Virus record (IMG/VR): IMGVR_UViG_3300032288_002071
Location: 1 to 55,715 of that record
DNA length: 55,715 nt
Strand: one strand, 5' to 3'
From: a virus
Lineage: Duplodnaviria; Caudoviricetes
The translations under genes and the position numbers were made by a program. Numbering within the stretch: the stretch's first letter is position 1; each line of letters opens with the position of its first letter. Positions 14,319 to 55,715 of this stretch are shown here, piece by piece. The notes under the pieces are model-generated. The model saw only the letters and a list, made by a program, of their open reading frames with translations, was not told the DNA's origin and searched no databases.

Positions 14319-14330
14319 TTCTGATAACAT

Positions 14331-32564: not shown

Positions 32565-32565
32565 T

Positions 32566-32871
32566 ATGCCAGCAGTATCTAGAAAATCAGGAACAGATTC
32601 TATAGCTACAAATCACGGGTGTGATGCTACAACTGTTACTGACCAAGGATCATCTGATGTTTTTGTAAATGGAATTGGTGCCGTTCGTGCTGGAGATTTG
32701 TGTCAAGTACATTTGATACTTTCTGGAGAATCTTGTGTACCACATACTGTTTCTTTGACATCCTTTTCAAGTACAGTGTTTGTAAATGGTAAAGGTGTAG
32801 GAAGAAAAGGTGATGAATACTCTGGGCATACTTTGACTTCTGGTTCTGGTAATGTTTTCGCTGGAGGCTGA
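32566..32871 (+). CDS. 5.4: PAAR spike-tip protein gp5.4
   Basis: MPAVSR, GSSDVFVNG..A.R.GD, GS.NVFAG. Confidence 0.9.
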   Translation: MPAVSRKSGTDSIATNHGCDATTVTDQGSSDVFVNGIGAVRAGDLCQVHLILSGESCVPHTVSLTSFSSTVFVNGKGVGRKGDEYSGHTLTSGSGNVFAGG

Positions 32872-32878
32872 ATAAATA
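32871..32878 (+). promoter_or_regulatory. Late-promoter variant
   Basis: AATAAATA 4 nt before the gene 25 ATG. Confidence 0.5.
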
Positions 32879-32882
32879 CCAA

Positions 32883-33305
32883 ATGGCAACTACAATAACA
32901 TCTCAGAATCCTAGAATCCAGTCCGAACGAACTTATCGTGATTTGGATTTGAACTTTAACAGACATCCAGTTAAAAAAGATGTGACAAAGCATCTTGATG
33001 AGTATGCTGTCATCAATTCAGTAAAGAATTTAGTATCAACTAATTTTTATGAACGTCCATTTAGACCCGAGTTAGGTAGTGGTGTTCGTTCGCTATTGTT
33101 CGAAAACGTTGATCCTATTATTGCTGCTCAGATTGAAAGAGCAATTGCTGAGGTAATTAACAATTACGAACCCAGAGTTAGAATTTTGGATTTGAATGCC
33201 ACAGCATATCCAGATGACAATCAATATAGTATGAAGATGACTTTTTTAATTGTGAACAATCCTAATCCAATTACAATTGATTTCTTCTTAGAGAGAATTA
33301 GATAA
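32883..33305 (+). CDS. 25: Baseplate wedge gp25
   Basis: Y.DLDLNF..HPV, SVKNLV.T..YERPF.P.LGS, I.NYEPRV. Confidence 0.95.
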   Translation: MATTITSQNPRIQSERTYRDLDLNFNRHPVKKDVTKHLDEYAVINSVKNLVSTNFYERPFRPELGSGVRSLLFENVDPIIAAQIERAIAEVINNYEPRVRILDLNATAYPDDNQYSMKMTFLIVNNPNPITIDFFLERIR

Positions 33306-33307
33306 AA

Positions 33308-39396: not shown

Positions 39397-39398
39397 GC

Positions 39399-39406
39399 GA
39401 TAAATA
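39399..39406 (+). promoter_or_regulatory. Late-promoter variant
   Basis: GATAAATA 6 nt before the gene 8 ATG. Confidence 0.6.
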
Positions 39407-39412
39407 TAACTT

Positions 39413-40984
39413 ATGACTTCGGTTACATCTAAAAAGATAGCATATACTTCAGCGGTTCAGTTCAAAGAATCTTTCTATGAGCCAAGCCCTGAAGTTGGCT
39501 ACGTCTATATTGGGAATCATTTACCATACGCAAATGAAAGCAGCCCTAGCTCAATTGTAGATTCTGTCAATGATGAAAAGTTGACTTGGGATAATATGAT
39601 AGCTGCTAAAAAGATTACTGGTAATGATGTTGAACTTGTGATACCAAAAATCATATGGACAGCAAATACAAAGTATAAACAGTATGATGACTTGGTTGCC
39701 TTAGACACATTACTTACTGGCAATACTTCACTTAATGTGAAGCCAATGTATGTTTATACATCACAACGTAACGTTTATAAGTGTTTATCTAATAACGCAT
39801 CAGCTAACTCTACTGTAGAACCAACTGGTGATTACACATCTTCAAATGGTAATATCGCAACTTCTGATGGTTACATCTGGAAGTATATGTTTAATGTTAA
39901 ACCATCTAATCGTTTCTTGTCGGACGATTGGATTCCAGTTCCAACAAGCACAAATCAGTTAGATTATAGCGTAGATGATATTGGTGTTGTTGATGGAGAA
40001 TTAACAACGATTGTTGTTACAAATACAGGTTCTGGTTTTTATGAGAATAATGTCGCAGTTGTTCCTATCTTCAGCTCTGGTTGTACAGTTCTTTCATTAG
40101 CAAATACAACGAATGTTGCTGCTAATATGTCTGTGTCTGGCACGGGTATTTCACCAGGTACATTTATTAGCCGTGTCGATGTACCAAACAATAATATCTT
40201 CTTATCAACAGCAACATCAGCATCAGGTGGTGGAAATACAACAGCAAATCAAATTGCTTTAACGACTAGAGTTTATATTGATGGTGATGGCACTGGAGCA
40301 GTCGCAGCAGCAACAATTAATGCTACTGGTTTTCTGACTAAAGTAACAGTCACAACAATTGGTACAGGTTATAGTAGAGCAAATGCTTTTGTATATGGAA
40401 CTGGTTCTAACTCATCTGTTCGAGTAATTCGTGATATGAAATATGGACATGGTTATAATCCAGCACGTGAACTTGGTGCGAATAGTGTTATGGTAACGTC
40501 ACGCATTGGTGAAATTGATTCTACTGAAAATGGAAAAGTGCCTGCCAACACTACGTTCAGACAATATGGTATCTTCGTGAACCCTCATAAATATGGCGAT
40601 GCTAATGTTGTTAGCGCAGCAAATGCTAATTCTGTGGTATCACAAGCAACCGTATTAACATTGATTACTGGTGCATCTTATTCTATAGATGAATTTGCGT
40701 ATCAAGGTTTACCCAACGATACAACTGCCGCAAATACAACAGCACGTGGATTTGTGCTAGATCAAACTTCAAGTCAAGTTAGATTGACGAATGTGATAGG
40801 AACATTTAGAACTGGTATTCCTCTTAGAGGCGCAAGTTCAGGTGTTGATGACCGTCTAATTGTATCTGTACAGAATCCAGAGTTTGAATCGTATAGCGGT
40901 GATATTCTTTACACTGAAAACGCAATAAAAACAACAAGAGCAGAAGGTCAGGCTGAGAACATCAAACTTATTGTTAGATTTTAA
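39413..40984 (+). CDS. 8: Baseplate wedge gp8
   Basis: W..MIAAKKI, W......Y..YDD, VYKCL.N, DGYIWKYMF, GHG.NP..ELG, SGDILY.EN, Q.E.IKLI..F. Confidence 0.92.
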   Translation: MTSVTSKKIAYTSAVQFKESFYEPSPEVGYVYIGNHLPYANESSPSSIVDSVNDEKLTWDNMIAAKKITGNDVELVIPKIIWTANTKYKQYDDLVALDTLLTGNTSLNVKPMYVYTSQRNVYKCLSNNASANSTVEPTGDYTSSNGNIATSDGYIWKYMFNVKPSNRFLSDDWIPVPTSTNQLDYSVDDIGVVDGELTTIVVTNTGSGFYENNVAVVPIFSSGCTVLSLANTTNVAANMSVSGTGISPGTFISRVDVPNNNIFLSTATSASGGGNTTANQIALTTRVYIDGDGTGAVAAATINATGFLTKVTVTTIGTGYSRANAFVYGTGSNSSVRVIRDMKYGHGYNPARELGANSVMVTSRIGEIDSTENGKVPANTTFRQYGIFVNPHKYGDANVVSAANANSVVSQATVLTLITGASYSIDEFAYQGLPNDTTAANTTARGFVLDQTSSQVRLTNVIGTFRTGIPLRGASSGVDDRLIVSVQNPEFESYSGDILYTENAIKTTRAEGQAENIKLIVRF

Positions 40985-40994
40985 AGGTTAATAA

Positions 40995-43900
40995 ATGGCA
41001 ATAACTACAAATTTAAATGTTGATCCGTACTACGACGATTTTAATGAAGATAAGAATTTTTATCGTATTCTGTATAAGCCAGGCTTTGCGGTTCAATCAC
41101 GTGAATTAACTCAGTCACAGTCTATTCTACAAGACCAAATTAAGAAGTTTGGTGACCACGTATTTAAAACAGGCTCTATTGTTTCTGGTGGGCAAATCTT
41201 TGTTCAAAATACCACATATATTAATGTGGCTACAGCATATGGAACATCCGATGTTGATTATGCCGTCTTTGATGGTGAATACATTACCAATGTGGCAGGT
41301 ACAAAGAAGGCATACGTTCTAAAATCATACGCTGCTGACTCAACTGCTGGTCAACCAATCACATTTATTGTTAATCAGCTATATGGTTCCGCTTTTGGTG
41401 TCAACGAAACTATTGTCACTGCTAATACACAAACTGGTGCAGTAAATTATTTTGCTAATGTAGCAGCATCCAATCCTACTGGTAATTCTAAAACATTCTC
41501 TATTAATGATGGTGTTTTTTACTATGAAGGTTTCTTTGTACGCAATGATGCTCAATCTATTGCTTTGTCAAAATATGATCGTAATTCAAATGTAATCGTT
41601 GGTTTTCAAGTAACTGAAGAAATTATTGATTATACCGAAGATACATCGTTACTTGACCCAGCACAGGACGCTTCAAACTTCCAAGCACCTGGTGCAGATC
41701 GTTTTAAGATTTCATTAACTCTAACTACACGTGCTTTAAATAGCACAGACCTATCACAGTTTATTGAGTTAAGTCAATTTGAAGGTGGTATTCAACAAAA
41801 AGTAATTCAAACACCAATTTACTCAACACTAGGTGATGAACTTGCTCGTCGTACATTTGATGAGTCTGGTGATTATCTTGTTCGCCCATTTGATATTGCA
41901 GTAACAGATGCGGCTAATACAGCACGTGCTAACGTTACATTAGGTGCTGGTAAAGCATATGTTCGTGGATATGAATTCCAAACAATTGCACCTACTGTTA
42001 TTTCTTTAGACAAACCAAGAACTACCGACAATGTAAACAATCGTCGTGTAACTGCCGACTTGGGTTACTATGTTTACGCTAATACTATTTACGGTACGTT
42101 CCCAACAAATCAAATTGCCAACGTTGAACTCTATGCAGTTGATGCTGGTTCGCTGGTAAGTATTCAAGCAAACACAGTCAACTTAACAAATGTAAGAGTT
42201 GGTTCAGCTAAAATTAAGATGATTTCTTTTGATTCATCTTCAAATACACAAGATTCAAATACTTACATTTATAAAGCATATCTGACAGATATCAATGTCA
42301 GCACCTTACTTAATACAGCAACAGGTAATGGTTACAATGCTACTGGTGGTAACACAACAACTGTAACATTACCATCTGGCTTTGCTGCAAATAATGGTGT
42401 ATACGTCGGCTCAAAGATTAGAATTGTAGCTGGACCAGGAACAGTTGATGGTTCAAGAACTGTGAAGTTCTATGATGGTTCAACACGTAATTTAACAGTT
42501 GATATTCCATATTCAACAGCAATTACATCAGCATCACAGTTTGCTATTGATTTTGATTTCGGTCAAACAGACTCAATTGCTGTTATGACTGGAGCAGCAG
42601 CAACACGTTCTGTATCAGCAAACGTTCACCCATATTCAAAGAAAGTGATTTATGCTCCAGTCGAGCATGAGGTATCATTTGTATCTGATACTGGTAACGA
42701 ACCTCTTCTGATTAAGATTGGTCAAGACAACGTAGCAGATAATACGATCTCTGATTTTAGTTATTCATATCGTCGTCTATATCAATCTGTTCCATTTACT
42801 TCTGATGTTTCATCACCATTATCTCTTGGCACTGGTGAATCATTATTATCAGCATCTTCTACTGCTACAAAACAACAATATTATACATTGGTTGTAACGT
42901 CAAAAGGGACTGGTGTTTATGATGTTGGAACAATTGTACCAGCAAGCGTAATCTCAGTAGACACTGCCGCACGTACAATTTCGGTAACTGCCGGTGGTTC
43001 AATGACGGCTAATATCTACGCTGGTATTAGTGTGTCTAATCCAACATCAAAAACAAAAACATTTATTCGTGCTAATACAAAACTTGCTGCTAATGGAACT
43101 GGTGTAACAACATCAAATAATGTATTTGGTAATGGTGCGATTATTGTTTCATCACCAGATGGTCAGACAATCATTAATGCAAACACAATTTTGGTAAGAA
43201 CACCTGGTGTTGACCAGTCATTGTTTGTTTCTGATGTTCATTCTATTAATGCTATTTTTGATTTTAATGGGACACCAATTACAACTACATCATACGATGC
43301 TGGTTCATATTCAAACGTAACATCATATTATACTCTAGTGACTGGTCAGAAAGACTCTTACTATGATTGGGGTGCAATTCGTCTGAAGCCTGGTTATCCA
43401 GCGCCAAAAGGTCCTCTGCTTGTTCGTTACAACAGATTCATTTCATCGGGCACTGGTTACTTTGATGTTGATTCATATACACGTTTAGGACCAGGTAACC
43501 TTGACTATGCTGAGATTCCTAGTTTTGTAACACAAGACGGTTCTGCGTCACCATTAAGTGATTACTTAGATTTCCGTCCGGTTCGTCTGGATGCAACCTC
43601 AACTATAACTGCTAACGGTTATTATTTTGATGTTGAAGAACGTGGCGCTGGTCCAAAAATTGTTGAAACAGGTACAGATTTAATTCTTGATTACAGCTAT
43701 TATCTACCACGTATTGATCGTGTTGTTCTAAACAAGAATGGATCGTTTGAAGTTATTGAAGGCATTCCGTCACTGACACCAAGTGAACCAAATGAGCCAG
43801 CAGATGCTATGACGCTGTACATTTTAGATTATCCAGCATATCTTGGTTTTGCATCCGAAACAAATATCAAAACGTTTAAGAACAAACGTTACACAATGAA

Positions 43901-46900
43901 AGATATTGGTGCATTAGAGAAGCGTATTCAAAATCTAGAATACTACACATCTCTGTCACTGATGGAACAAGCAACAATCAATAAGCAAGACTTGTCTATT
44001 CTTGATACTACAGGTTTACCACGATTTAAGAATGGTATTATGGTTGATCCATTTACCGACAAGACTGTAGCTAATTTTAACGCTTCAGACTTCTCTGCTG
44101 CGATTGACATTGTTGGTAATCTTGCTCGTAACAGTTACAATCTAGCGTCCGTAAGAATCTTCTCAAATAATTCAACATCTGACTCTGGTGTTGATTTTAA
44201 TGGACCATTGCTAACACTGACTGGTACAGATGAAAACTTCTTAACACAAAATCTTGCGTCAAAATCTGTAAACATTAATCCGTTCAACATCGTAAATTAT
44301 GTTGGCTCTGTTAAACTTGATCCTACATCTGATGTTTGGACTTCAGATACCCGTGTTGAAACACAAAATATTGATTTAACTGGTGGTGAAGCAGCACGTG
44401 ATGCTTGGTCATCAATTCAAAGTACATCGTGGGGTTCGTGGCAAACAACATGGACAGGAGTTACTCAGCAAGCACAGGGTGGTTTAAAAACAACCGATGA
44501 GAGAAGAGCAAGAACAGTTAATGCTAGGGGACAAACTACACGTGTTGGTACATGGCGTACAGTTACACAAGATGTTTTGGAAACACGCACAACAAGAGAA
44601 ACACGCACTGGCATTCTTTCACAGATTGTACCACAACAATTAACACGTTCACTTGGTGATCGTTTGATTGACGTTACTGTTGTTCAATTTATGAGAGCAA
44701 CAAACATTCTTGCGATTGGTACAAACTTCAAACCATCAACAACTCTTTACACTTATTTTGATAATCAGAGAGTAGACAATTACGTTTATCGTGCGAACCT
44801 GTTGAAATTTGTCAACAACAATCTTCAGTATGAGACAACTATTGGTGATCCTGAGTTTGTTGATTTCTACGACAACACAAACGGTCAATTAATGGGTGAA
44901 GGTGTTGTTGTTCTAACAGCAAACAATCACGCATTTATTACCAATATTGTTCCTGATGCTTCTTATGGAACTTGGGCAAATGCGTCAATTGGTATTCGTG
45001 TAATTGGAGCAACAACAGGTGCCAATAATACAACAACTAACTGGCAACATTATTCTGGCACTGTTCGCTCCGCAACTGTATCTACAGTTCAGCTTGACTT
45101 CCATGCTGGTGGTGCAGCCAATACTTCTGATTATGTTGGACAGACAATCCGTATTATTGGTGGTTTGGGTAACGGACAAACAGCAACAATCAATGCTTAT
45201 AACACAAGCACACGCACTGCTAATATTTCTACAAACTGGACAACGACTCCAGATACAACATCATCATATTCAATTGGTACATTAACAACAACGATTGAAG
45301 GCGCAACTGCTGGTATCTTTGCGGCACCTACAGATACATTCCGTGTGGGTGAGAAGATGTTCCGTCTGATTGATGACCCAAATGGTTCATTGGAGAGTTC
45401 GACAACAAATGGTGAAACATCATTCTTCTCACAAGGTCTGATTCAGACTAAACAAGAAACAACTGTTTCAGTATTTGTTCCAACGGTAACACGTTCAACT
45501 GTAACAGAAAGTCGTGTAAACCAAACATCGTCTGTTCGCACTGCCGTTGTTCGTCAGGGTTGGGTTGATCCACTAGCGCAGACATTCTTGGTAAACCCAG
45601 ATACATACCCACAAGGTATTATGTTGTCAAGTGTGCGTGTGTGCTTTAGAACAAAAGACGCACAAGCACCAGTAACACTACAGATTCGCACAGTAGTGAA
45701 CGGGTATCCATCAACTGTTGTTTATCCTTATGCTGATGTTTCATTAACACCAGATAAAGTTAAGACTAGTGTATTACCAAGTCTGACAGATACTAACAAG
45801 TATACCGAATTTACATTTGATGTACCAGTTTATCTGTTACCTGGTGAACACTCAATTGTTCTTCTGTCTAACTCTGTTGGATATGAAGCATATGTTGGTG
45901 AAATTGGTCAAGTTAATCTTGCGAACTCTGTGAAGATTTCTGAGCAGCCATACACTGGCACACTATTCTTATCACAGAACGGTTCCACATGGACTGCTGA
46001 CCAAACTTCTGACCTGATGTTTAGTTTGTTCAAGAAAGCATACTCAACAACAACACCTGGTTATGCTTACTTCGAAGTCGATATGTCACAACAAACAGCT
46101 AACGCATTGTTTGATGTAATGCAGGTTATGTCTACTGATGTTGTTCTTGCGAACACCACACTAGATTATCAGTTTATTGCTGAGAATACTACAGGAACAA
46201 CACATCCATATATTTCATTTACACCAAATCTTGATTATAAGATGGTAGATGGTTATGGTCGTCGTTCACTGAATACCGCAACGGGCAACACAACATTTTC
46301 ATTACGTACAGTTCTATCAACAACAAATCGTGATATTAGCCCGATGCTTGATAAGACAAGATTGAATCTTCTTGCTATTGAAAACCGCATCAACAATCTA
46401 CAACTAAAGAACACAGATTTTGTAATTACTGCTCCTGGTTCTAGTTACACAACTGCGACTGTAGCAATTACTGGTGGTGGTGGCACAGGTGCTACCGCTT
46501 CTGCTACCGTTGCTGGTGGTCAAGTAACAGGAGTCACACTGACAAACGCTGGTTCTGGTTACACATCCTCACCAACAATTACAATCACTGGTGATGGTTC
46601 AGGTGCGACTGTTGCATATAACGGTGAAGATAAGAGATCAGGTGGTAACGCAGATGTTCGTTATATCACACGTAAAGTACAACTGGCATCTGGTTTTGAT
46701 TCTGGTGACCTTCGTGTATATCTGTTAGGTTATATGCCACCACAAGGTAACATTTATGTGTATGCTAAGTATCTGGCTTCTGGTGATCCACAGAAGTTTG
46801 AGGATAAGAATTGGTCATTATTGACACAGATTGGTGGTGGTAATTTTGTTTCTGCTGATGATAGTGATTATCGTGAGATGACATTTGCTCCGGGTGCAAA

Positions 46901-47057
46901 TGGTGTTGAAACAAACAACATCAACTACACTTCTGGTTCAGTCACATACACAACGTTTGCAACTTTTGCAGTTAAAGTTGTAATGACAAGCACTGATCCT
47001 ACTGATGTACCAAAAATCAGAGACTTACGAATTATCGCTTTACCTGAGTCATTATAA
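40995..47057 (+). CDS. Large virion structural protein, VrlC/DUF4815-like
   Basis: TNLNV.PYYDDF...KNFYR.L.KPG..VQ.RELTQ.Q.ILQ.QI, LARRT.DESGDY, YYLPRID, DPLAQTF, P.I.DLR.IA. Confidence 0.9.
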
Positions 47058-47278
47058 TGCTAGTACAAATTAAAGATGATCCTAAATTGGTTCGTGATGT
47101 TACGAATCGTGCGATATTAAATACTGATCGTGAAGGTCTTGAGCGTTATAAAACACAGAGATTACTTGCTAAAAAACGATTGGATGAACAAGAAGAAATG
47201 AAAAACAAAGTAAATAAACTAGAGCAGGATGTGTCTGAGATTAAAGACCTCCTGCGTCAACTTGTAACGAGAACATAA
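47057..47278 (+). CDS. Small coiled-coil protein following the VrlC-like gene
   Basis: LVRD....AI.NTD, C-terminal heptads. Confidence 0.85.
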   Translation: MLVQIKDDPKLVRDVTNRAILNTDREGLERYKTQRLLAKKRLDEQEEMKNKVNKLEQDVSEIKDLLRQLVTRT

Positions 47279-47279: not shown

Positions 47280-47891
47280 ATGGCAATAGACCAGATTTCC
47301 ACAGCAAATACTTTTGAAGAGTGGTTAACTACCACTTCAACATTGGTTGCAGTAGCGAACAATTTAACCAACAATACTGGTGGTGGTTTTATCATGAACT
47401 CTTCAATCTTTATTGAAGGTTCAGCGGCATCTTTAAATGTTCGAACACAAGCCAACATCAATACACTGACAGCAAACACTGCTAATATTGCTAATGTTCT
47501 TTTATCTTCTAGCAATGTTTCAATACCTTTAGATTTGACTATTGGAAGGAATGCAAATCTTGTAGGTAATGTGGCGTCCGTGAATGTAACTAACAAATTA
47601 TTTGTTGGTGGCGATGCTTTCGTTTATGGTAACTTAACAATATCTGGTAACGTTACTTTAGATTCAGTTGGTTTTGATGATTTAGATGTAAAAGGTTCTG
47701 CAAACATTGCAAACAATTTATATGTAACTGGTGTTTCAGAATTTAATGGAAATATTTCTGCTGGCAATTTGTCTATGACTGGAACATTATCTGGTGCGAC
47801 AATAATTACTGGTCCAGCAAACAATGCAATTTACAGCACTATCACAGCAGCAATTGACTCATCAATTGCATTTGCGATTGCTTTAGGTTAA
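47280..47891 (+). CDS. Fibre-like virion protein
   Basis: NTFEEW...T N-terminus, beta-rich middle, C-terminal SIAFAIALG. Confidence 0.75.
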   Translation: MAIDQISTANTFEEWLTTTSTLVAVANNLTNNTGGGFIMNSSIFIEGSAASLNVRTQANINTLTANTANIANVLLSSSNVSIPLDLTIGRNANLVGNVASVNVTNKLFVGGDAFVYGNLTISGNVTLDSVGFDDLDVKGSANIANNLYVTGVSEFNGNISAGNLSMTGTLSGATIITGPANNAIYSTITAAIDSSIAFAIALG

Positions 47892-47920
47892 ATAAATACT
47901 GACGAAAAACAGAGGATTTA

Positions 47921-48253
47921 ATGGCTAACAATTTTAGAAACTATACACTTAAAGCCGCTGGAACTACAGCGCAAAATGCGTATGCTGTTGGTGCTGGTGT
48001 TCAAGCAACTGTCATTGGTATGACAATTGCAAACATTACCCCATCACCTATTTCGGCAAATGTTATTTTAAATGGTGGAAATATTACGGGTAATGTTTAC
48101 CTAGTAAAAGATGCCACGATTGCTCCTGGCGGCGCATTGGTGCCTGTTGGTGGTGATCAAAAACTTGTGCTAGAGGCAGGAGATTATTTACAAGTAAATA
48201 CTTCTGTTGCATCTTCGGGTGATGTTATTGTTTCTGTTTTGGAGATTAGCTAA
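47921..48253 (+). CDS. Small beta-sandwich adaptor-type virion protein
   Basis: TVIGMTIANIT...YLVKDA.I.PG....KLVLE.GD.L; similar to 50136 and 53860. Confidence 0.75.
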   Translation: MANNFRNYTLKAAGTTAQNAYAVGAGVQATVIGMTIANITPSPISANVILNGGNITGNVYLVKDATIAPGGALVPVGGDQKLVLEAGDYLQVNTSVASSGDVIVSVLEIS

Positions 48254-49215
48254 TGTCATACATTGGTAATAGCCCAGATGTAAATGCTTTTACGATAGGC
48301 GTTGAAAGATTTAACGGCACTGGAGCTTGTACACAATTTACATTGACACGTGATATCGACGATTCAAAAGCAATCGAAATCGTCGTCAATGGTGTTCAAC
48401 AAGACCCAGATAATTCTTATACAGTAACAAATGGTATAATTACTTTTAGTGAAGCGCCACCAACTGGTGCGAATAATATCACTGTAACATATCGTTCCCC
48501 AATTGTTATAACTTTTAATCAAGTTACTGAATCACAACTTCAAGCAAATTCAGTTAAAGAAGGAGCAATTGCTGAGAATGCAATAACTACAAGTAAGATT
48601 TCTCCACTTTCAGTTACGGGTAATAAATTAGGATTATATTCTGTATCTGGCAATAATATTGGTACTGGTGCTATTAGCGCAAATAACTTTGCTGGTGGTG
48701 GTATCACATCAAATGTTTTATCATCAAATTTACAGTTGTCCGTTTCACAAATAACCGAAAAAATAAACATCAGTGGTTCTAGCAGTTTTTATGGTGGAGT
48801 TGCTCAAGGTTCTGTTTCTGGTATTTTAAATATTGATATTATGAATGCAACTGTGCATTCGTTTGAAGCAAATACCACAGGAAATGTAACATTTAATCTT
48901 CGTGGAAACTCAATAAACACTTTTGATTCTTGTATTGCTGTTGGTAATAGTGTTTCATTAATGATTGCATTAAAACATAATGCAGCAGGTGGAAGAGCAC
49001 AAACCAACGTACATATTGATGGTGGTTTAATTCAATCTGGTGGTGGTGGATGGGCTGGTAATTTAATGCTTTATAATTCAAATACAGCTCCAAGTTTTTC
49101 ACCTATTACTAAAGACGAATATAATTTTTATTCATTAACAGTTTTTAAACGTGCATCAAATACATATTCGGTATTTTTAGCAAATACAACTTACGGTAGA
49201 GGATCGGGTTTTTAA
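48253..49215 (+). CDS. Fibre protein: MSYIGN anchor, 10-aa repeats, C-terminal adaptor domain
   Basis: Paralogue of 51821; C-terminal domain shared with 10535. Confidence 0.8.
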   Translation: MSYIGNSPDVNAFTIGVERFNGTGACTQFTLTRDIDDSKAIEIVVNGVQQDPDNSYTVTNGIITFSEAPPTGANNITVTYRSPIVITFNQVTESQLQANSVKEGAIAENAITTSKISPLSVTGNKLGLYSVSGNNIGTGAISANNFAGGGITSNVLSSNLQLSVSQITEKINISGSSSFYGGVAQGSVSGILNIDIMNATVHSFEANTTGNVTFNLRGNSINTFDSCIAVGNSVSLMIALKHNAAGGRAQTNVHIDGGLIQSGGGGWAGNLMLYNSNTAPSFSPITKDEYNFYSLTVFKRASNTYSVFLANTTYGRGSGF

Positions 49216-49217
49216 AT

Positions 49218-50117
49218 ATGCCTAGACTTGCTGGTTTAAGTAATGGTGGGTTAACGGGTTATGGTATTGGTATTGCTGGTAAAAAGGCATTTATTAATGT
49301 TCACTCATTTAATGTAACTTCAAGTTGGAATCCACCACCAGGACTAGAGTATATTGAATTACTTGTTGTTGCTGGTGGTGGTGGTGGTGGTGGTAATTAT
49401 GGTGGTGGAGGTGGTGCTGGTGGAGTTAGAGTTTCCAATTCATATCAAATAGATTCCACAAAAACATATACGATTGTTGTTGGTGCTGGTGGTGCTGGTG
49501 GTCTAGATGTAGACAATAAAGGTGCATCTGGAACATCATCTAGTATAACTGCTCCTGGATTATCAACTTTTTCTACAACTGGTGGTGGGGGTGGTGGAAG
49601 TAGAGGATTTAATGCTGCAACTGCTCCAGGAAATCCTGGAGGATCTGGTGGCGGCGGCGGCGGATATAATGATTTAGCAAATCTTGGTGGTAGTGGAAAC
49701 GCTGGTGGTTATAATCCCGTTGAAGGATATGGTGGCGGAAAATCTGGTGGATACTATTTTGGTGCGTGTGGTGGAGGTGGTGGTGGAGCTGGTGCAGCAG
49801 GACAAGACGTTCCAGCAGCAGGTAATGGTGCTGGTGGAGATTATAAAGGTGGGCGTGGTGGTATAGGTATTGATTGGAATGGATTTAAAGTTGGGGGTGG
49901 TGGTGGAGGTGGCAATTGGAGTAGTAATCCAGTAGCTCCTGGAGATGCTGATGGTTATGGAACAGGAAAAGGTGGTATATCAACAACAGGCCCCGCTGCG
50001 ACTAGTGGTGGAACAAATCAAGGTGGTGGTGGTGGAGGTGGTGGTACATCAAATGTGCCACAAGGTGGTTCAGGTGGTTCCGGTATAGTGATTGTTCGTT
50101 ATTCACAGTTTTATTAA
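49218..50117 (+). CDS. Glycine-rich adhesin-like protein (single domain)
   Basis: ELLVVAGGGGGG...GGSGGSGIVIVRY. Confidence 0.85.
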   Translation: MPRLAGLSNGGLTGYGIGIAGKKAFINVHSFNVTSSWNPPPGLEYIELLVVAGGGGGGGNYGGGGGAGGVRVSNSYQIDSTKTYTIVVGAGGAGGLDVDNKGASGTSSSITAPGLSTFSTTGGGGGGSRGFNAATAPGNPGGSGGGGGGYNDLANLGGSGNAGGYNPVEGYGGGKSGGYYFGACGGGGGGAGAAGQDVPAAGNGAGGDYKGGRGGIGIDWNGFKVGGGGGGGNWSSNPVAPGDADGYGTGKGGISTTGPAATSGGTNQGGGGGGGGTSNVPQGGSGGSGIVIVRYSQFY

Positions 50118-50135
50118 TTTTTAAAAAGAAAAAAA

Positions 50136-50474
50136 ATGGCAAGAGCATATAAAATATTAGGACAAAATAATCCAGGTTCGGGTGTTTTAACAACACTCTA
50201 TACTGTTCCCGCTGGTAACTCAGCAATTATATCTTCAATTACAATCGCTAATTTGAATGAAGATGCAAATTCTGGTGCTTCATTTAGAATTGCGGCAAAC
50301 TCATCTGGTGCTGTAGTTTCTAATGCAAACTATCTTGCATATAGCGTTAATGTTCCTGGTCGTGATGCAATTACATTGACTCTTGGTATTACTTTGAATG
50401 CGGGTTCACAATTATCTGTTCACGCTAATTCCACTTTACTTTCATTTGCAGCATTTGGAACTGAAATCTACTAA
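50136..50474 (+). CDS. Small beta-sandwich adaptor-type virion protein
   Basis: YKILGQ..P.....TLYTVP...AIISSITIAN...LTLGITL..AFGTEI. Confidence 0.75.
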   Translation: MARAYKILGQNNPGSGVLTTLYTVPAGNSAIISSITIANLNEDANSGASFRIAANSSGAVVSNANYLAYSVNVPGRDAITLTLGITLNAGSQLSVHANSTLLSFAAFGTEIY

Positions 50475-51352
50475 TGGCACTGAATAGAGTCGTTCTTAAT
50501 AAGGTATCAATAAAACGCATGTCTGTTCCTGGAACGGGCGGATCATCTGCTGCACCTGCCGCTTCTACTAAAACTCCTACAGTTGAATATTTAATTGTTG
50601 GTGGTGGTGGTGGAGGAGGTGGTGATGGTGGTGGTGGTGGTGGTGCTGGAGGATTTAGAATAAATCCTTCTTATCCCGTTACATCTGGTACAACATATAC
50701 GATTACAGTTGGTGGTGCAGGTTCTGCTCCTGCTGGTGGACAAGGTGGTTCTGGTTCAAATTCTGGATTTCATCGTGCTGCACCATTTTCTTCGGTGTGG
50801 GCAACTGGTGGTGGGGGTGGTGGTAGAGGGGGTGGATCATCAGCAGCAGGTAGTAATGGTGGCTCCGGTGGTGGTGGCGGTGGTTTTTTTGGTGGTGTTT
50901 CACGAGCAGGTGGTAGTGGTAATGCTGGTGGTTATTCCCCTTCTGAAGGTAATAACGGTGGTATATCTGATGGGGGTGGACCACAATATGGTGGAGGTGG
51001 TGGAGGTGGAGCTGGAGGTGTCGGTGGTGCAGGCACACCAAGTACCAGTGGACCCGGTGGACCTGGTACTGCAAGCACAATCACAGGTGCTTCTGTAACT
51101 TATGCAGCGGGCGCTTCTGGTGGGGGTACTTCTGGACCATCGACTGCTGGAACACCAAATACCGGAAATGGTGGAGGTGGAAGTAGTAATGGTCCTACTG
51201 TTGCTGGTGGTCAAGGTGGTTCTGGTGTAGTTGTCATTCGTTATCTAACTACTTATGACAATGTATCAGCGATTAGTGGAGCAACCTACTCTGAAAGTAG
51301 TGGATATAGAATCTTTAGATATACTGGTGCCGGATCTATAACTTTTTCATAA
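50474..51352 (+). CDS. Glycine-rich adhesin-like protein (single domain)
   Basis: VEYLIVGGGGGGG...GGSGVVVIRY, ends GYRIFRYTGAGSITF. Confidence 0.85.
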   Translation: MALNRVVLNKVSIKRMSVPGTGGSSAAPAASTKTPTVEYLIVGGGGGGGGDGGGGGGAGGFRINPSYPVTSGTTYTITVGGAGSAPAGGQGGSGSNSGFHRAAPFSSVWATGGGGGGRGGGSSAAGSNGGSGGGGGGFFGGVSRAGGSGNAGGYSPSEGNNGGISDGGGPQYGGGGGGGAGGVGGAGTPSTSGPGGPGTASTITGASVTYAAGASGGGTSGPSTAGTPNTGNGGGGSSNGPTVAGGQGGSGVVVIRYLTTYDNVSAISGATYSESSGYRIFRYTGAGSITFS

Positions 51353-51361
51353 AAAACACAG

Positions 51362-51369
51362 TATAAATA
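51362..51369 (+). promoter_or_regulatory. T4-type late promoter
   Basis: Exact TATAAATA before the GAGGTG RBS of 51390. Confidence 0.85.
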
Positions 51370-51389
51370 TTTTTATTTGAGGTGATTGA

Positions 51390-51809
51390 ATGAATAACAA
51401 AGACATTGAATATGCACAATATTTAATTGGCAATAACAACAAATTAGTTTGTGGTATTGATACTGCAATCAAAACATTACGACCAACTGCTCGTTATGAT
51501 ATGTCTGCTTCGGGTGGACATTTTGAGTTTACACGTTGGGAAGATGAAGCTGGTACTAAACCACCAACTAAAGATGAAATTATGAAGGAACTAGAATATC
51601 AAAATAAGTTTATTGCATATTGGCAGCATTTCGTTGATCGTGCAGCAAACTATCCTGATATTGTAGTTATTATCAATAGTTTATGGGAAGCAATTGATAC
51701 TGGTGTTATTCCAGGTAAAGGAACAAAGTTCTATGAATCTATCAAAGAAATTAACGATAAGTTTCCTAAACCTGATGGTGAACCACCAGTAAGACCAACA
51801 TACGAATAA
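51390..51809 (+). CDS. Putative tail-fibre assembly chaperone
   Basis: AI..LRP.A, W......PPT..EI, R...YP, IK..NDKFPKP pattern; within the fibre cluster. Confidence 0.6.
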   Translation: MNNKDIEYAQYLIGNNNKLVCGIDTAIKTLRPTARYDMSASGGHFEFTRWEDEAGTKPPTKDEIMKELEYQNKFIAYWQHFVDRAANYPDIVVIINSLWEAIDTGVIPGKGTKFYESIKEINDKFPKPDGEPPVRPTYE

Positions 51810-51820
51810 TAGGAAATTAA

Positions 51821-52831
51821 ATGTCATATATTGGCAATCAAGTTACGTCAGTACCTCATGTAGTTGATATTTTTACTGGCGACAATACGACAGTTACCTT
51901 TGGACCACTGACACGTGCTCCTGCTGGTACTGCTGCTATTGCTGTGTTTGTAAACGGTGTTTATAAAATTCCTGGCGTTGATTACACACTAAATGGTAAT
52001 TTAATTGTTTTCACTTCTGCTCCAGCTTCAAGTGCTAGTGTTATCATACATCATTTAGGTAATGGTACAACAACACAAGTTCCATCCGATGGTTCAGTTA
52101 CAGGAAATAAATTAGCAATAAATTCTGTTCGTGGTAACAATATTGTTGCTGGAGAAATTACAGGTAACTTGATTGCTGCTACATCTGTTGCGACTAATAA
52201 TATTGTTGTTGGTGCAATTACAGGTAACTTGATTGCTTTGAATTCAATATCCGGTAATCAAATTGGTGTCTATGCAGTTTCCGGCAATCAAATCGGTACT
52301 GGTGCTATCAGTGCAAATAACTTTGCCGGTGGTGGTATTACATCAAATGTTTTATCACCAAACTTAACATTAACTATAACAAGAACAAACGAAACTACTA
52401 ATTTATTTTCTACTGCTCCAGCAGGAAATATAAACATTGATGTTGCAAACACCACTCTTTATTATTTCACATCGAATACTACAGCAAATGTGACATTTAA
52501 TCTTCGTGCAAATAATATAAACACGTTTGATTCTGTTGTTAGAATAGGTGAGACTGTTACTGTAACTATTATGCTTCGTCATTCAACAACATCTGGTGGT
52601 CGCCATACTGCAAATGTTTATATTGATGGTGGATTGATTACTACGAATAGAACAAACCCAGACCAAGCCGGTGCAAATAATTTATTTTACGTTGCTAACA
52701 TCGTTCCATTATACGCAACTACTATTGCTGGAACTGGTTTTGAAATGAATATGTACAACATCAGTGTATTCAAACGAGATGCAAATACGTACACAGTATT
52801 CATGTCTAATACAAATGCTCAAATAGGTTAA
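51821..52831 (+). CDS. Fibre protein: MSYIGN anchor, 10-aa repeats, C-terminal adaptor domain
   Basis: Paralogue of 48253; AGGA RBS. Confidence 0.8.
   Translation: MSYIGNQVTSVPHVVDIFTGDNTTVTFGPLTRAPAGTAAIAVFVNGVYKIPGVDYTLNGNLIVFTSAPASSASVIIHHLGNGTTTQVPSDGSVTGNKLAINSVRGNNIVAGEITGNLIAATSVATNNIVVGAITGNLIALNSISGNQIGVYAVSGNQIGTGAISANNFAGGGITSNVLSPNLTLTITRTNETTNLFSTAPAGNINIDVANTTLYYFTSNTTANVTFNLRANNINTFDSVVRIGETVTVTIMLRHSTTSGGRHTANVYIDGGLITTNRTNPDQAGANNLFYVANIVPLYATTIAGTGFEMNMYNISVFKRDANTYTVFMSNTNAQIG
52090..52345 (+). repeat. Decapeptide (30-nt) tandem repeats
   Basis: SVTGNKLAIN/SVRGNNIVAG/EITGNLIAAT/SVATNNIVVG/AITGNLIALN/SISGNQIGVY/AVSGNQIGTG/AISANNFAGG; ATTACAGGTAACTTGATTGCT occurs twice, 60 nt apart. 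Confidence 0.85.
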
Positions 52832-52832
52832 C

Positions 52833-53840
52833 ATGAGTAGATTAGCATCATTAACATCATTAGGAATAATTGGCACATTAAAAAAAACTAGAGTTCCTGT
52901 ATCACTTGTTTATACTGGTCAGGGAACATTCACGGTTCCACCGGCGCTTACTGCAATTGATGTTTTTGTTGTTGCCGGTGGGGGTGGTGGAGGTGGTGCT
53001 GTAAATGGTGGTGCTGGTGGTGGTGGTGCCGGTGGTGTTAGATTTATTACCGGTAAAACTGTTCGTCCAAATATCACCCTCAATATTCAAGTGGGCAGCG
53101 GCGGCGCAGGTGGTTATGACGCTTATGGTTCAAATGGTGGCAATTCGGGTATTTGGACTACAGATTATTTGATTCCACCACTTATTCCGGTTGGTGATGT
53201 GTGGTCAACAGGAGGTGGTGGCGGTGCTGGAGCAGTGGCTCCCTCTGGAAGTCCTGGAAGGGGTGGTGGTTCTGGTGGTGGAGGTGGTGGCAACTCATCC
53301 CCTTCAACTAGAGGTGGTGGCGCTGGTAATTTAGGTGGATATAATCCATCCGAAGGAAATACTGGTGGTGGGGGTGGTTTTTCTGGTGGTGGTGGAGGTG
53401 GTGGTGCTGGCAATGTTGGTGAAACAAAATCTTATGGTGGTGGTAACGGTGGCATAGGTATATTTTCTACGATGTCTGGAACTAACACTGCATATGGTGG
53501 AGGAGGTGGAGCATTTGGAATATTTTTCACTCCAGGACCACTTGCTCCTATGTTGGGTACGGGTGGTGGTGGTTCGGTGCCCGGACCTCTTGGAACAAAT
53601 AGTATTAATAAGTATGGTTCACCGAGTTCTTTAGTATCTCCATACGGTGCATTTGTTGGAACACCGTTTGGTGGTGGTGCTGCAAGCACTTATCAACCGC
53701 CGTATGCTGGTAGACCAGGAAGAGGTGAAGCTGGTGTTGCGTTTACGGGTGGTGGTGGTGGAGCATCGGATGATGGTGGTGGTAATGGAGAAGGATGGGG
53801 TGGTAATGGTGGTTCGGGTATTGTTATTATCAGATACTAA
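52833..53840 (+). CDS. Glycine-rich adhesin-like protein (single domain)
   Basis: IDVFVVAGGGGGGG...GGNGGSGIVIIRY. Confidence 0.85.
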   Translation: MSRLASLTSLGIIGTLKKTRVPVSLVYTGQGTFTVPPALTAIDVFVVAGGGGGGGAVNGGAGGGGAGGVRFITGKTVRPNITLNIQVGSGGAGGYDAYGSNGGNSGIWTTDYLIPPLIPVGDVWSTGGGGGAGAVAPSGSPGRGGGSGGGGGGNSSPSTRGGGAGNLGGYNPSEGNTGGGGGFSGGGGGGGAGNVGETKSYGGGNGGIGIFSTMSGTNTAYGGGGGAFGIFFTPGPLAPMLGTGGGGSVPGPLGTNSINKYGSPSSLVSPYGAFVGTPFGGGAASTYQPPYAGRPGRGEAGVAFTGGGGGASDDGGGNGEGWGGNGGSGIVIIRY

Positions 53841-53859
53841 TAAGCTAAGGAAAAAATAA

Positions 53860-54255
53860 ATGGCAGCACCTAACATTGTCAGTGTAGCAAACATTTTGGG
53901 AAAAAGTAACGTAGCTAACGTTACTACTGTCACTTCAAATGTTGTTTCGAACGTTTATGGTTCGAACAAAGTATTTAAAATAAACACGATTATTATATCA
54001 AATGTTGATGGTGCAAACAATGGTATTGTTACAGTTGGACTATACAAAGGCGGAAACTCAGGTTCTCAAAGAACAGCAGATGGTACAGTCTACAATACAG
54101 TTTTTTCAATTGCCAATACTATCACCGTTCCTGCAAAGTCATCTCTAGACATTCTTGCTAAAAATTTATATCTTGAGGAAGGAGATGTCATTACAGTGAG
54201 AGCCGATGCGAACAATCGCTTGCACATGATTACTTCTTTTGAAGAGATTAGTTAA
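53860..54255 (+). CDS. Small beta-sandwich adaptor-type virion protein
   Basis: MAAPNIVSV..I.GK, KINTIIISNVDG, I.VPA.SSL, YLEEGD, SFEEIS. Confidence 0.8.
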   Translation: MAAPNIVSVANILGKSNVANVTTVTSNVVSNVYGSNKVFKINTIIISNVDGANNGIVTVGLYKGGNSGSQRTADGTVYNTVFSIANTITVPAKSSLDILAKNLYLEEGDVITVRADANNRLHMITSFEEIS

Positions 54256-55715
54256 ATGCCTTTTGGTTACAATGGCGGCGTTCTTGGTTTTGTAAATCTA
54301 GCAAAAGGTTTAAATGGAATCACTAATGGCATCTGGTCACTAGATGAAGTATTCATTAATCGTGATTTGGGTTATTGGCCCAACACGACACGCAGTGAAT
54401 ATGCAAATCAAATATTCACATCTTCAGGTACTTTCACTACCACACCTCTTGTTTCATCGTATGTAGAATATCTTGTTGTTGCCGGTGGCGGCGGTGGTGG
54501 AGGTCAAGCTGGCGGTGGCGGTGGAGGTGGTGGTTTTCGTTCGGGACAAATTGCCGTAGATGCTGGAAAAACTTACACCGTAACTGTTGGTGGTGGTGGT
54601 GCCGTAGGCACTATAGGATCTAATAGCGGATTTTTTGAAAATTCTTCAGGACAACCTAGTTTTTGGTCAACTGGTGGTGGTAGAGGTGGTGTAAATTCTT
54701 CAGGGCAACAAGGCGGTGGTGATGGTGGTTCTGGTGGAGGAGGAGGATCAACTGGATATGGAGGTGGTCCTCATCCGGGTGGACAAGGAAATGCAGGAAA
54801 TTATATTCCATTAGAAGGTTATGGTGGTGGCTCTGGTTTATTTTTTCTATCTGTACCTTCTCCCGGCGGTGGTGGAGGTGGTGGCGCTGGTGCTAATGGC
54901 TTAAGTGCTGTGAATGGTCAAGGTGGTAATGGTGGTATAGGAATCTTCTCTTCTGTATCTGGTGCAAATATAGGATATTCTGGTGGTGGTGGAGGATGTA
55001 TTGATTCGTCAACTCCTAATAATTATGGAGTTGGTGCACTAAGTTTTGGTGGAGCAAATGGCGCATATCTTTTTTCTGGAACAGCGGGCAATGGCACAAC
55101 AAATCGTGGTGGCGGTGGCGGCGGAGGAGGTCCTGCCGTAGGACCAACTAACACAGGAGGTCTTGGTGGCTCAGGTTTCGTATACATAAGACAGTTTACA
55201 CTTTCAACTACATCAGTATTTGTATTTGCTAATACAACTCAATTTACAGTTCCCGATGGTGTCACATCAATTGATTATTTGATTGTTGGTGGTGGTGGTG
55301 GAGGAGGCTCTTTTGGTGGTGGTGGAGGTGCGGGTGGCTTACTTCAAGGCACAGGATATCCTGTAGGACCGGGACAGCTATACACTATTCAAGTTGGTTC
55401 TGGTGGTTCGGGTGCAACTACATCAGACACGGGGATAAATGGAAGCAATGGAACAAATACAATATTTTCAGCAGGTAACACAGTAAATGCCGCTATTTTT
55501 ACTGCTAGAGGAGGTGGAGGTGGAGGAACAAGAAACGGTGCACCGGGTTATGGTGGACCTGCTGCATTCTCTGGCGGTTCGGGTGGTGGTGGTGCCAACT
55601 CAGATTCAGGACCAGGAGGTCCTGCTGGTTTAGGAACACCAGGACAAGGAAACAATGGAGGTAATGGTGGAACTGGTGTTGTTGGAACACCTGATTATGG
55701 ACATGGTGGTGGAGG
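54256..55715 (+). CDS. Multi-domain glycine-rich adhesin-like protein, 3'-truncated (not in ORF track)
   Basis: ATG directly after the upstream TAA; MPFGYNGGVLG...GIWSLDEV...VEYLVVAGGGGG; second unit IDYLIVGGGGGG...QGTGYPVGP matches domain 2 of 11017. Confidence 0.85.
   Translation, partial: MPFGYNGGVLGFVNLAKGLNGITNGIWSLDEVFINRDLGYWPNTTRSEYANQIFTSSGTFTTTPLVSSYVEYLVVAGGGGGGGQAGGGGGGGGFRSGQIAVDAGKTYTVTVGGGGAVGTIGSNSGFFENSSGQPSFWSTGGGRGGVNSSGQQGGGDGGSGGGGGSTGYGGGPHPGGQGNAGNYIPLEGYGGGSGLFFLSVPSPGGGGGGGAGANGLSAVNGQGGNGGIGIFSSVSGANIGYSGGGGGCIDSSTPNNYGVGALSFGGANGAYLFSGTAGNGTTNRGGGGGGGGPAVGPTNTGGLGGSGFVYIRQFTLSTTSVFVFANTTQFTVPDGVTSIDYLIVGGGGGGGSFGGGGGAGGLLQGTGYPVGPGQLYTIQVGSGGSGATTSDTGINGSNGTNTIFSAGNTVNAAIFTARGGGGGGTRNGAPGYGGPAAFSGGSGGGGANSDSGPGGPAGLGTPGQGNNGGNGGTGVVGTPDYGHGGG

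Follow-up and report, generated by a model that had tools for sequence, protein, structure and literature searches.

Organization of the fibre cassettes

The window analysed here, the complete IMG/VR record IMGVR_UViG_3300032288_002071 (55,715 bases, an estimated 34% of the virus genome), is a fragment of a marine T4-like myophage, and the system in question is a set of five genes for glycine-rich proteins (G1 to G5), each of which directly follows a partner gene. Four of these pairs lie in the fibre cassettes directly 3′ of a T4-type baseplate module (28449–47057), which encodes a tube cap, gp48-, gp53-, gp5-, PAAR-, gp25-, gp6-, gp7-, and gp8-like proteins and a giant DUF4815 protein; the wedge subunits are those resembling gp53, gp25, gp6, gp7, and gp8, and the hub is the gp5-like protein. 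The G genes are located at the distal end of this module. The fifth pair, A1–G1, occupies a second locus (10535–13464) distant from the cassettes. All cassette genes, as well as A1 and G1, are on the plus strand.

The first gene of the cassettes is F0 (47280–47891), an open reading frame (ORF) for a 203-aa stalk protein with a hydrophobic tail (...SSIAFAIALG), whose match to a bactofilin-like beta-helix was weak and below the cut-off. It is followed by S1 (47921–48253), a 110-aa small jelly-roll protein of class Sa (phrog_1276, E = 7.4e-8; alignment with S2 and S3), whose stop codon overlaps the start of A2. A2 (48253–49215) is a 320-aa short fibre with a C-terminal knob (48763–49212), as judged from phrog_5906 (E = 9.5e-8), tail-fibre PHROGs, and alignment, and it precedes G2 (49218–50117), a 299-aa glycine-rich putative tip (PF21722, E = 1.2e-17). 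S2 (50136–50474), a 112-aa jelly-roll protein of class Sb (phrog_1276, E = 2e-7), precedes the 292-aa G3 (50474–51352; PF21722, E = 1.9e-13). Next come X139 (51390–51809), a conserved 139-aa protein that matched only PHROGs of unknown function, A3 (51821–52831), a 336-aa short fibre with a C-terminal knob at 52373–52828 (phrog_5906, E = 1.5e-12; alignment), and the 335-aa G4 (52833–53840; PF21722, E = 4e-14, its two matches being one domain). The last pair consists of S3 (53860–54255), a 131-aa protein placed in the jelly-roll family as class Sc by alignment with S1 and S2, with no PHROG match, and G5 (54256–55715, open at its 3′ end), which abuts S3 and encodes at least 486 aa with at least two domains before being cut by the contig end (PF21722, E = 1.8e-33, two stretches). 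In the second locus, A1 (10535–11014) is a 159-aa protein with a knob on a very short stalk (phrog_5906, E = 6.9e-15; alignment), with synteny kept in the related loci L002–L004 and L026, and G1 (11017–13464) is an 815-aa protein with three tandem PF21722 domains (E = 3.9e-67, three stretches).

The spacing between partner gene and G gene was 2 nt for A1–G1 and A2–G2, 1 nt for A3–G4, and 0 nt for S3–G5, and S2 and G3 overlap by 1 nt. According to their coordinates, the A and G genes are in different frames, and they therefore encode separate proteins in the window. The statement of a first-pass annotation of this DNA that all five glycine-rich genes directly follow a partner gene thus holds. 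The positions it gave for them (10535, 48253, 51821, 50136, and 53860) mark real genes, but are the starts of the partner genes A1, A2, A3, S2, and S3, and not of the G genes. F0, S1 ahead of A2, and the 139-aa gene ahead of A3 are elements beyond that annotation.

Predicted fold of the glycine-rich proteins

The G proteins contain 34–36% glycine, and all five scored above the curated cut-off of PF21722 (Gly_rich_2), at 51–227 bits compared to 24.3 bits. Eight PF21722 domains are present in the whole record (three, one, one, one, and two in G1 to G5, respectively, the last one being cut by the contig end), in line with the at least eight glycine-rich domains proposed at first. In an alignment of 28 single-domain relatives of the G proteins, glycine occupied 23 of the 24 invariant columns, and proteins of about 300 residues were spread over 568 columns. 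The earlier description of a conserved glycine scaffold with variable loops is therefore a fair one.

G2 was modelled from this 28-sequence alignment with AlphaFold2 (AF2), with a predicted local distance difference test score (pLDDT) of 81.9 and a predicted template modelling score (pTM) of 0.82. In the model, residues 1–16 have pLDDT values below 50 and are non-helical, the first strand of the jelly roll starts at about residue 24, and no helix is present. Among the matches listed for the model, the closest was the fibre protein gp24 of cyanophage Pam3 (7ypx_A; Z = 16.6, root-mean-square deviation (rmsd) 3.6 Å, 202 of 250 residues, 25% identity; Foldseek E = 6.8e-5), followed by the tail tip of mycobacteriophage Bxb1 (9d93_Qb; Z = 14.7, 31% identity). 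The tumour necrosis factor (TNF)-like plus glycine-rich domains in ALK and LTK (TG domains) matched at Z of about 8, and the next unrelated chain at Z = 3.2. The entry for S16 gp38 (6F45) was absent among the matches listed by Foldseek and in a second structural list. These results indicate, as far as a predicted structure can, that the glycine-rich proteins share the fold of a known phage receptor-binding tip, the head of Pam3 gp24.

According to the parts of PMC9608196 drawn on here, this gp24 domain is the receptor-recognising end of the fibre, with twelve glycine-rich motifs forming a four-layer lattice and a hypervariable distal tip, and it is related to S16 gp38 (rmsd 2.7 Å over 52 residues) and to ALK. 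Such domains are named polyglycine-rich or brush domains, and treated as anti-receptors, in the available sections of PMC13243192 and PMC13243795. The comparison with T-even gp38 adhesins in the first-pass annotation was thus right in kind, but the closest structures among the matches listed are those of Pam3 gp24 and Bxb1. Attachment through a gp38-like helical N-terminal domain did not find support, as the model of G2 shows a short, disordered peptide at the N-terminus.

Searches by sequence gave the following. The G2 homologue search was swamped by glycine words and returned 661 unnamed PF21722 proteins with no function or context. A tblastn search of G2 against cultured phages gave no match, probably owing to the low-complexity filter, and PDB sequence searches with G2, A3, the knob profile, and a glycine-rich profile gave nothing significant.

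The relatives of G5 that follow Sc genes are 813–878 aa long and have three domains. The possibility of a single-chain pseudo-trimer, in which three tandem heads mimic a trimer, was dropped because complete ORFs exist for forms with one, two, and three domains alike.

The knob of the short fibres

A1, A2, and A3 share a C-terminal knob of about 140 residues with NIDV, TFNLR, and IDGGLI motifs, as seen in their alignment. The knob corresponds to PHROG 5906, which, like the PHROG 1276 of the S proteins, has no annotated function. In A2 and A3, the knob terminates a protein with an MSYIGN start and repeats of about 10 residues, and the A3 shaft (approximately residues 73–180) matches tail-fibre and host-specificity proteins of many phages. 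In relatives, the knob ends proteins of 117 to 1,925 residues.

A profile of 36 knobs detected 3,788 representative clusters at E ≤ 0.001, and 3,008 at E ≤ 1e-10. Of the 3,788 clusters, the best 150 included 146 in which the knob ended no more than 20 residues before the C-terminus, and the same was true of 25 of the 26 longer homologues that were scored (27 listed). Neither the knob nor the A proteins belong to a Pfam family, and the knob had no PDB sequence match. The PDB searches with A3 and the knob profile revealed no sequence relation of the knob to gp37.

Knob-ended orthologues of 189, 199, 229, and 259 aa differ in length by ten-residue steps. In L005, L006, and L011–L013, two tandem knob-ended short fibres with lengths in these steps, and with no glycine-rich partner, lie directly before a 316-aa gene, the product of which we take to resemble the T4 neck protein gp13. 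The position before the gp13 gene is that of fibritin in T4.

The N-terminal plug follows the class of the upstream gene

The N-termini of G1, G2, and G4, which follow the knob proteins, are MPPIFASLGSG, MPRLAGLSNGG, and MSRLASLTSLG, respectively, and share the pattern M-P/S-x-L-A-x-L (class I plug). Those of G3 and G5, which follow S2 and S3, differ from these and are MALNRVVLNKVSIKRM and MPFGYNGGVLG, respectively; the class II plug of G3 is MALNRVVLNKVSIKRMSVPG, and the peptide of G5 is the class III plug.

Approximately 100 related viral contigs (29 seeded by the knob, 52 by the S family, and 23 by a back-translated class I peptide) were annotated with small hidden Markov models built from the window's own proteins, and the non-redundant proteins directly downstream of each gene class were counted. 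For the knob genes (n = 32), 26 followers carried the class I motif (M-P-x-L/I-x-x-L/F) and 25 were glycine-rich. For the Sa genes, which resemble S1 (n = 22), 20 followers started with M[SA]Y[ILV]GN, and only one was glycine-rich. The Sb genes, which resemble S2 (n = 20), were followed by the class II motif (...LNKVSLKRM / ...LNRVSLRRF) in 11 cases and by a glycine-rich protein in 13. For the Sc genes, which resemble S3 (n = 10), the corresponding numbers were seven for class III (M..G.NGG[IV][IL]G) and eight. No cross-class motif was observed among the counted followers of the knob, Sa, Sb, or Sc genes. These results indicate that the class of the N-terminal plug tracks the class of the upstream gene. 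It does not track the protein body, as described below.

The class motifs were written after the data were seen, and the association was therefore examined by two cleaner tests. First, a profile made from the window's three class I peptides only was compared with 545 non-redundant N-termini from 81 contigs. The top 17 matches comprised 10 proteins directly after a knob gene and seven within two genes of one, and the first match of another class appeared at rank 18. Among class I N-termini scoring at least 8 bits, 22 of 23 were in a locus holding a knob gene. Second, the peptide-seeded search, which is independent of the knob, yielded 23 matches, 15 of them ORF starts (three of the 15 on contigs already in the other sets). 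A knob gene ended no more than 21 nt upstream of seven of the 15 and lay two genes upstream of three; four had none within 2.5 kb, and one had no upstream DNA. The four starts with no knob within 2.5 kb belong to tandem arrays of plug-bearing proteins.

The first-pass annotation had noted that the three glycine-rich proteins after the NIDV/TFNLR/IDGGLI domain start alike, and the three-peptide profile shows that they do so beyond chance. Its observation that the two proteins behind small beta-sandwich genes start differently also stands, and S2 is indeed modelled as a jelly roll.

In L017, L008–L010, L110, and L114, two or three proteins with class I plugs occur in tandem beside a single knob gene. 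This arrangement would fit several different tips sharing one trimeric socket.

Plugs are portable, and co-vary with the end of the knob

The same plug was found on unrelated bodies. The class I plug is carried by three Laminin_G_3 (concanavalin A (ConA)-like lectin) domains in L007:7176-9353 and by DUF7483 in L015:9693-11702, and the class II plug by DUF7483 after an Sb gene in L034:6358-8403. Likewise, the same body was found with different plugs: three Laminin_G_3 domains carry a class-III-like N-terminus after an Sc-class gene in L059:1557-3734, and in L063:5332-7461, where the upstream S gene is unclassified, their N-terminus is another one. The plugs are thus portable, with the choice of plug going by the upstream neighbour. 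Of all the results, this one separates docking most clearly from the N-terminus merely being part of the glycine-rich family.

The lectin-type tips of L007, L059, and L063 each have exactly three Laminin_G_3 domains, and many glycine-rich tips have three PF21722 domains.

Covariation was examined in 27 non-redundant knob/tip pairs, the plug being defined as the first 22 residues of the tip. For the last 15, 25, 40, and 60 residues of the knob, windows that were chosen after a test of the whole knob, the correlations with the plug were r = 0.36, 0.37, 0.35, and 0.31 (p = 0.004, 0.002, 0.002, and 0.008), respectively. No significant correlation with the plug was obtained for the knob minus its last 25 residues (r = 0.09, p = 0.21), for the 78 residues that come next after the plug (r = 0.11, p = 0.19), or for the body of the plug's own protein (r = 0.07, p = 0.27). 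Linkage alone would predict at least as much covariation of the plug with the rest of its own gene, which was not seen.

A 537-aa database protein, P0216, consists of a knob, four residues, a class I plug, and a glycine-rich body. It could be a natural fusion, or an artefact of sequencing or gene calling. If real, P0216 would be a Rosetta-stone case for the C-terminus of the knob and the N-terminus of the tip lying together. No knob–tip fusion was found among the 27 longer knob homologues listed (26 scored), and P0216 was the only one among the best 150 representatives. A complex prediction for three A2 knobs (residues 150–320) with G2 gave scores of 0.12 and 0.02, below the mark, and was counted neither for nor against binding.

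Small jelly-roll proteins and the tails of the stalks

S1, S2, and S3 form a weak family, in which S2 and S3 are 25–31% identical to S1. The AF2 model of S2 (pLDDT 87.7) is an eight-stranded, all-beta jelly roll with no helical domain. Fold searches with S2 returned generic jelly rolls only, the best being the KHP40 cement protein (7dou_4; Z = 10.1), near the background of the tool. S1 precedes A2, and not a glycine-rich gene. The small jelly-roll proteins were at first regarded as adaptors specific to glycine-rich proteins, a view that has to be given up, because each subclass pairs with any downstream fibre protein bearing the matching N-terminus.

The proteins directly upstream of the S genes were also compared, again as non-redundant sets from the related contigs. 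The protein before an Sa gene ends in I[AV]LG in 20 of 21 cases, as does F0 (...IAFAIALG), that before an Sb gene in FL[FL]GGM in 8 of 16, and that before an Sc gene in [IV][FY]GG in 5 of 10. The remaining proteins before S genes are mostly glycine-rich and have no such tail. The relatives of F0 range from 71 to 327 aa and have the same two ends.

In close relatives, the stalk after S1 ends in an FLFGGM tail and is directly followed by an Sb gene and a tip. In the window, a knob forms the end of the stalk and is separated from the Sb gene by a class I tip, an arrangement shared by at least L022, L023, L041, and L046.

The identity to relatives was 82–90% for S1, 66–81% for S2, 71% for S3 (L018), and 86–95% for X139 (L018 and L041), compared to 44–55% for the G proteins and 44–75% for the A proteins. 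Judged by these identities, the putative connectors are conserved and the tips are not. A member of the S family was also recognized in the Pelagibacter phage HTVC010P, where gp24 (hhalign probability 98.5%, E = 3e-15) carries the label 'virion structural protein', for which no basis was found.

X139 regularly precedes fibres of the MSYIGNQV type in several loci. A weak, feature-based lead (32% of one cluster) connects it to XkdW, which we take to be a small protein of the prophage tail-fibre region. X139 is thus a candidate chaperone, or a candidate connector with a different fold.

Proposed architecture and alternative explanations

From the gene order, the fold, the association of plug and partner, the portability of the plugs, and the end-to-end covariation, we infer modular docking joints for exchangeable receptor-binding tips, to which we assign a probability of roughly 55%; the physical docking, the location in the virion, the stoichiometry, and the receptor binding are all part of what is inferred. 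The region would encode an outer host-recognition apparatus made of separately encoded parts joined end to end. The glycine-rich proteins would be the distal receptor-binding tips, in which a TNF-like jelly roll carries a polyglycine lattice with variable distal loops. Their N-terminal plug of about 20 residues, predicted to be disordered alone, would dock on the product of the gene just upstream: the class I plug on the C-terminal knob of a short fibre, and the class II and III plugs on a small jelly-roll S protein. The S proteins may also link to the hydrophobic C-terminal tails of stalk proteins. Because the Sa-type tail is the only one in the window, F0, S1, A2, and G2 can be read as one four-protein chain. 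Since plug and socket are conserved while the bodies vary, whole tips would be exchangeable by recombination at the joints.

A further step, which we regard as tentative and more doubtful than docking itself, is a combinatorial joint code. It would comprise at least four mutually exclusive plug/socket pairs, which may be the knob with class I, Sa and its ...IALG tail with MSYIGN, Sb and its ...FLFGGM tail with class II, and Sc and its ...I[IV]FGG tail with class III. Several tip types per virion (polyglycine, ConA-like lectin, and DUF7483) would then sit on separately encoded chain segments, and tips would move from phage to phage as cassettes without disturbing assembly.

Several observations weigh against the proposed docking. 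About 66% of the genome is missing from the record. In 7 of 32 non-redundant cases, the knob has no glycine-rich follower, which implies that the knob can be a fibre end in its own right. The plug-and-socket code suggested by the first-pass annotation is weakened at the same point, and is supported by an N-terminal class tied to the upstream class with no cross-class case, by the portable plugs, and by the covariation of the plug with the end of the knob. ConA-like lectin matches were found in 2 of 36 knobs, but these are weak and a lead only. The coverage of the motifs is partial (11 of 20 followers of Sb genes for class II, and 7 of 10 followers of Sc genes for class III). All loci were retrieved through homology to proteins of the window, many of them in related phages, and the counts are therefore not independent events. 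The whole knob did not correlate significantly with the plug (r = 0.12–0.13, p = 0.12–0.15), the significant windows at its end were selected after this negative result, about a dozen tests were run, and the ends of knob and plug are adjacent in the DNA, so that a shared recombination history could contribute; for these reasons, the covariation is suggestive, not proof. Finally, no ORF in the window ends in an Sb- or Sc-type stalk tail, S2 and S3 are preceded by glycine-rich proteins with no matching tail, and the attachment points of S2–G3 and S3–G5 are not identifiable in this fragment.

It is common for phage fibres to depend on a small chaperone that matches them specifically and is encoded alongside. 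It is conceivable, although we consider it unlikely, that the S proteins, perhaps X139, and even the knob are assembly chaperones absent from the virion, in which case the class-specific N-termini would be the sites of chaperone–client recognition. The S genes are translationally coupled to the gene that follows, with gaps of −1 to +16 nt, as this explanation would have it, and the weak lead from X139 to XkdW points in the same direction. Chaperones such as T4 gp38 and Mu Tfa have their genes downstream of those of their clients and act on the C-terminal part. The beta-sandwich domain of Pam3 gp25 binds the glycine-rich head of gp24, according to PMC9608196. However, gp25 too is encoded downstream and acts on the C-terminal part of its client, whereas here the specificity resides in the N-terminus of the client and in the tail of the protein before the S gene. 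In addition, S2 is all-beta in its model and lacks the helical trimerisation domain of gp25, the knob is a covalent C-terminal domain of a fibre with shaft repeats and not a free protein, and one S homologue bears the annotation of a virion structural protein, a label whose basis is unchecked.

Less likely still is that each glycine-rich protein is an independent fibre that plugs its N-terminus into the baseplate, with the plug classes addressing different sockets and the adjacency of the genes reflecting operon order or joint inheritance. Pam3 gp24 docks on the baseplate in this manner by its own N-terminal domain, as stated in the available part of PMC9608196, and the negative test of the whole knob, the existence of knob fibres with no glycine-rich partner, and the ability of linkage to make adjacent DNA co-vary are all compatible with it. 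In contrast, the plug class follows the upstream gene even on unrelated bodies, nearly all class I N-termini of at least 8 bits (22 of 23) reside in a knob-holding locus, and the covariation of the plug extends across the gene boundary to the end of the knob, while the neighbouring part of the plug's own gene shows none. The knob–plug–tip fusion P0216 and the absence from the G2 model of a helical docking domain like that of gp24 also argue against an independent fibre.

A knob that is itself a lectin-like receptor-binding end, with the glycine-rich proteins as accessory or alternative adhesins that sometimes ride on it as one optional add-on and no general code, would agree with the seven knob genes that have no glycine-rich follower, with a knob family (3,788 clusters) far larger than the pairs examined, and with the two weak lectin matches, but it is improbable as an alternative, because it overlaps and is compatible with docking and leaves the three further S-tied plug classes and the portability of the plugs unexplained.

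Comparison with known systems

The T4 long tail fibre is built from gp34, gp35, gp36, and gp37 joined end to end, with the genes in structural order. The docking joints proposed here resemble it in both respects, with several proteins end to end and genes in structural order, and differ from it in the small connector, which here is a jelly roll of 110–130 aa. No homology to T4 fibre proteins was detected in the Pfam and PHROG profile searches. As for a T4 gp10-like branching domain, the knob and A proteins have no Pfam family or PDB sequence match, the knob having been searched by sequence only.

The Pam3 gp24/gp25 fibre (PDB 7YPX and 7YFW; PMC9608196, in part) has the same head fold, a TNF-like jelly roll with a polyglycine lattice, and both are fibres of myophages. 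In Pam3, however, a long N-terminal helix of gp24 trimerises and docks on the baseplate, whereas the G2 model has a disordered peptide of about 20 residues and no helix. The gp25 chaperone, with its beta-sandwich and helical domain, is encoded downstream; none was recognised in the window, where S2 after G2 is all-beta and pairs with the following gene. A single type of fibre is present in Pam3, compared to at least five tips in the phage of the window, some with two or three tandem heads per chain.

The gp38 of Salmonella phage S16 (6F45) is likewise a separate polyglycine adhesin encoded right after the fibre gene and held on the end of the fibre by its N-terminus, with conserved glycine motifs and variable loops (Dunne 2018, as cited in PMC9608196 and PMC13243192). 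This gene order is found in the window, where G1, G2, and G4 start 1–2 nt after A1, A2, and A3. Whereas gp38 attaches by three short helices according to the same part of PMC9608196, a short peptide would serve here. The polyglycine 'brush' domains of Bxb1 (PDB 9D93), a structural match to the G2 model, are regarded as anti-receptors and are situated in a siphophage tail tip or wing (PMC13243192 and PMC13243795, in part).

The nearest precedent for the docking principle comes from podophages of Klebsiella (KP32, K11, and KP34), in which a branching domain of the first receptor-binding protein (RBP1) and a conserved docking peptide of the second (RBP2) are required interacting partners; in KP32-type phages, the second protein is no longer incorporated when one or the other element is lost (PMC13352976, in part). 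Ackermannviridae also build branched tailspike complexes (PMC11414711 and PMC8825819, in part). The resemblance lies in the short conserved N-terminal peptide on the second RBP, the dedicated domain on the first, the exchangeable bodies, and the adjacent genes, the docking being proposed in the present case. The conserved peptide has its counterpart here in the class I, II, and III peptides, each tied to its partner class. The proteins, folds, and phage groups are different: those systems carry tailspike depolymerases, whereas here glycine-rich or lectin tips would be carried by a T4-like marine myophage. At least four plug classes and free-standing jelly-roll connectors also distinguish it from the branched RBP systems.

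Among cultured phages, similar cassettes were observed in two cases. Synechococcus phage S-CAM22 encodes a 196-aa knob-like protein and, 4 nt later, a 303-aa glycine-rich protein starting with MPLYSSFSAGG. In Methylophilales phage Melnitz, the gene for the giant baseplate protein leads into the same overall layout, with an S-like gene, a fibre, and a 460-aa protein with 26% glycine, and then another S gene and a 404-aa protein with a glycine-rich domain. These genes are annotated as hypothetical, except for a 'putative tail fiber protein' in Melnitz and a 'sericin 1 precursor-like protein' in S-CAM22.

In marine T4-like phages (cyanophages, pelagiphages, and their relatives), the fibres determine which of the abundant bacteria of the ocean the phages kill, and most of the fibre architecture lacks annotation. 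Provided that the joints are real, exchangeable tips on conserved connectors would set the host range, which would explain the extreme mosaicism of the region, and tips, stalks, and connectors could be annotated from sequence alone. Should the joint code be true as well, the knob, with about 3,800 clusters, would be among the commonest fibre-end sockets in aquatic phages. The glycine-rich head, as well as the principle of a docking peptide and a branching domain established in the Klebsiella phages, is already known. The open-access literature that was searched contained no description of the knob family, the jelly-roll connectors, or the plug peptides. Relative to that literature, what is new is the knob family, the jelly-roll connectors, and a set of four plug classes, as well as the occurrence of such parts in marine T4-like phages on tips of the polyglycine, lectin, and DUF7483 types. 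The advance would thus be a new and apparently widespread set of parts, and not a new kind of mechanism.

Neighbouring genes and relatives

The nearest cultured phages by DNA are distant, namely marine cyanomyophages and the Pelagibacter phage HTVC008M, with 66–74% identity over approximately 100–200 bases of the gp6 gene. A DNA megablast search with the fibre region gave no match.

The motif TATAAATA, which we take to be the T4 late-promoter consensus, occurs at 10509–10516 and 51362–51369, in each case some 20 nt ahead of a start codon (that of A1 and that of X139, respectively). Its count in the window is four, which is at chance level, and scans of the window for sigma-70 promoters and terminators were at or below the level of shuffled sequence.

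The DUF4815 protein (40995–47057; 2020 aa) is the last gene of the baseplate module before the cassettes and a candidate anchor for the F0 stalk. Between it and F0 lies only a gene for a 73-aa protein on the plus strand (47057–47278; phrog_473 'virion structural protein', E = 5e-17). The same gene of about 75 aa, and then a stalk gene, also follow the DUF4815 protein in relatives and in phage Melnitz.

Upstream of the A1–G1 pair (8694–10176) are genes for a nucleotide-sugar epimerase/dehydratase and a ClpP-like protease, a neighbourhood that recurs in L002–L004. Three small genes after G1 (13527–14846; 118, 130, and 158 aa) had no PHROG match. Many relatives have the 118- and 130-aa genes behind their knob/tip pair, and the products of these genes are candidate assembly factors of G1.

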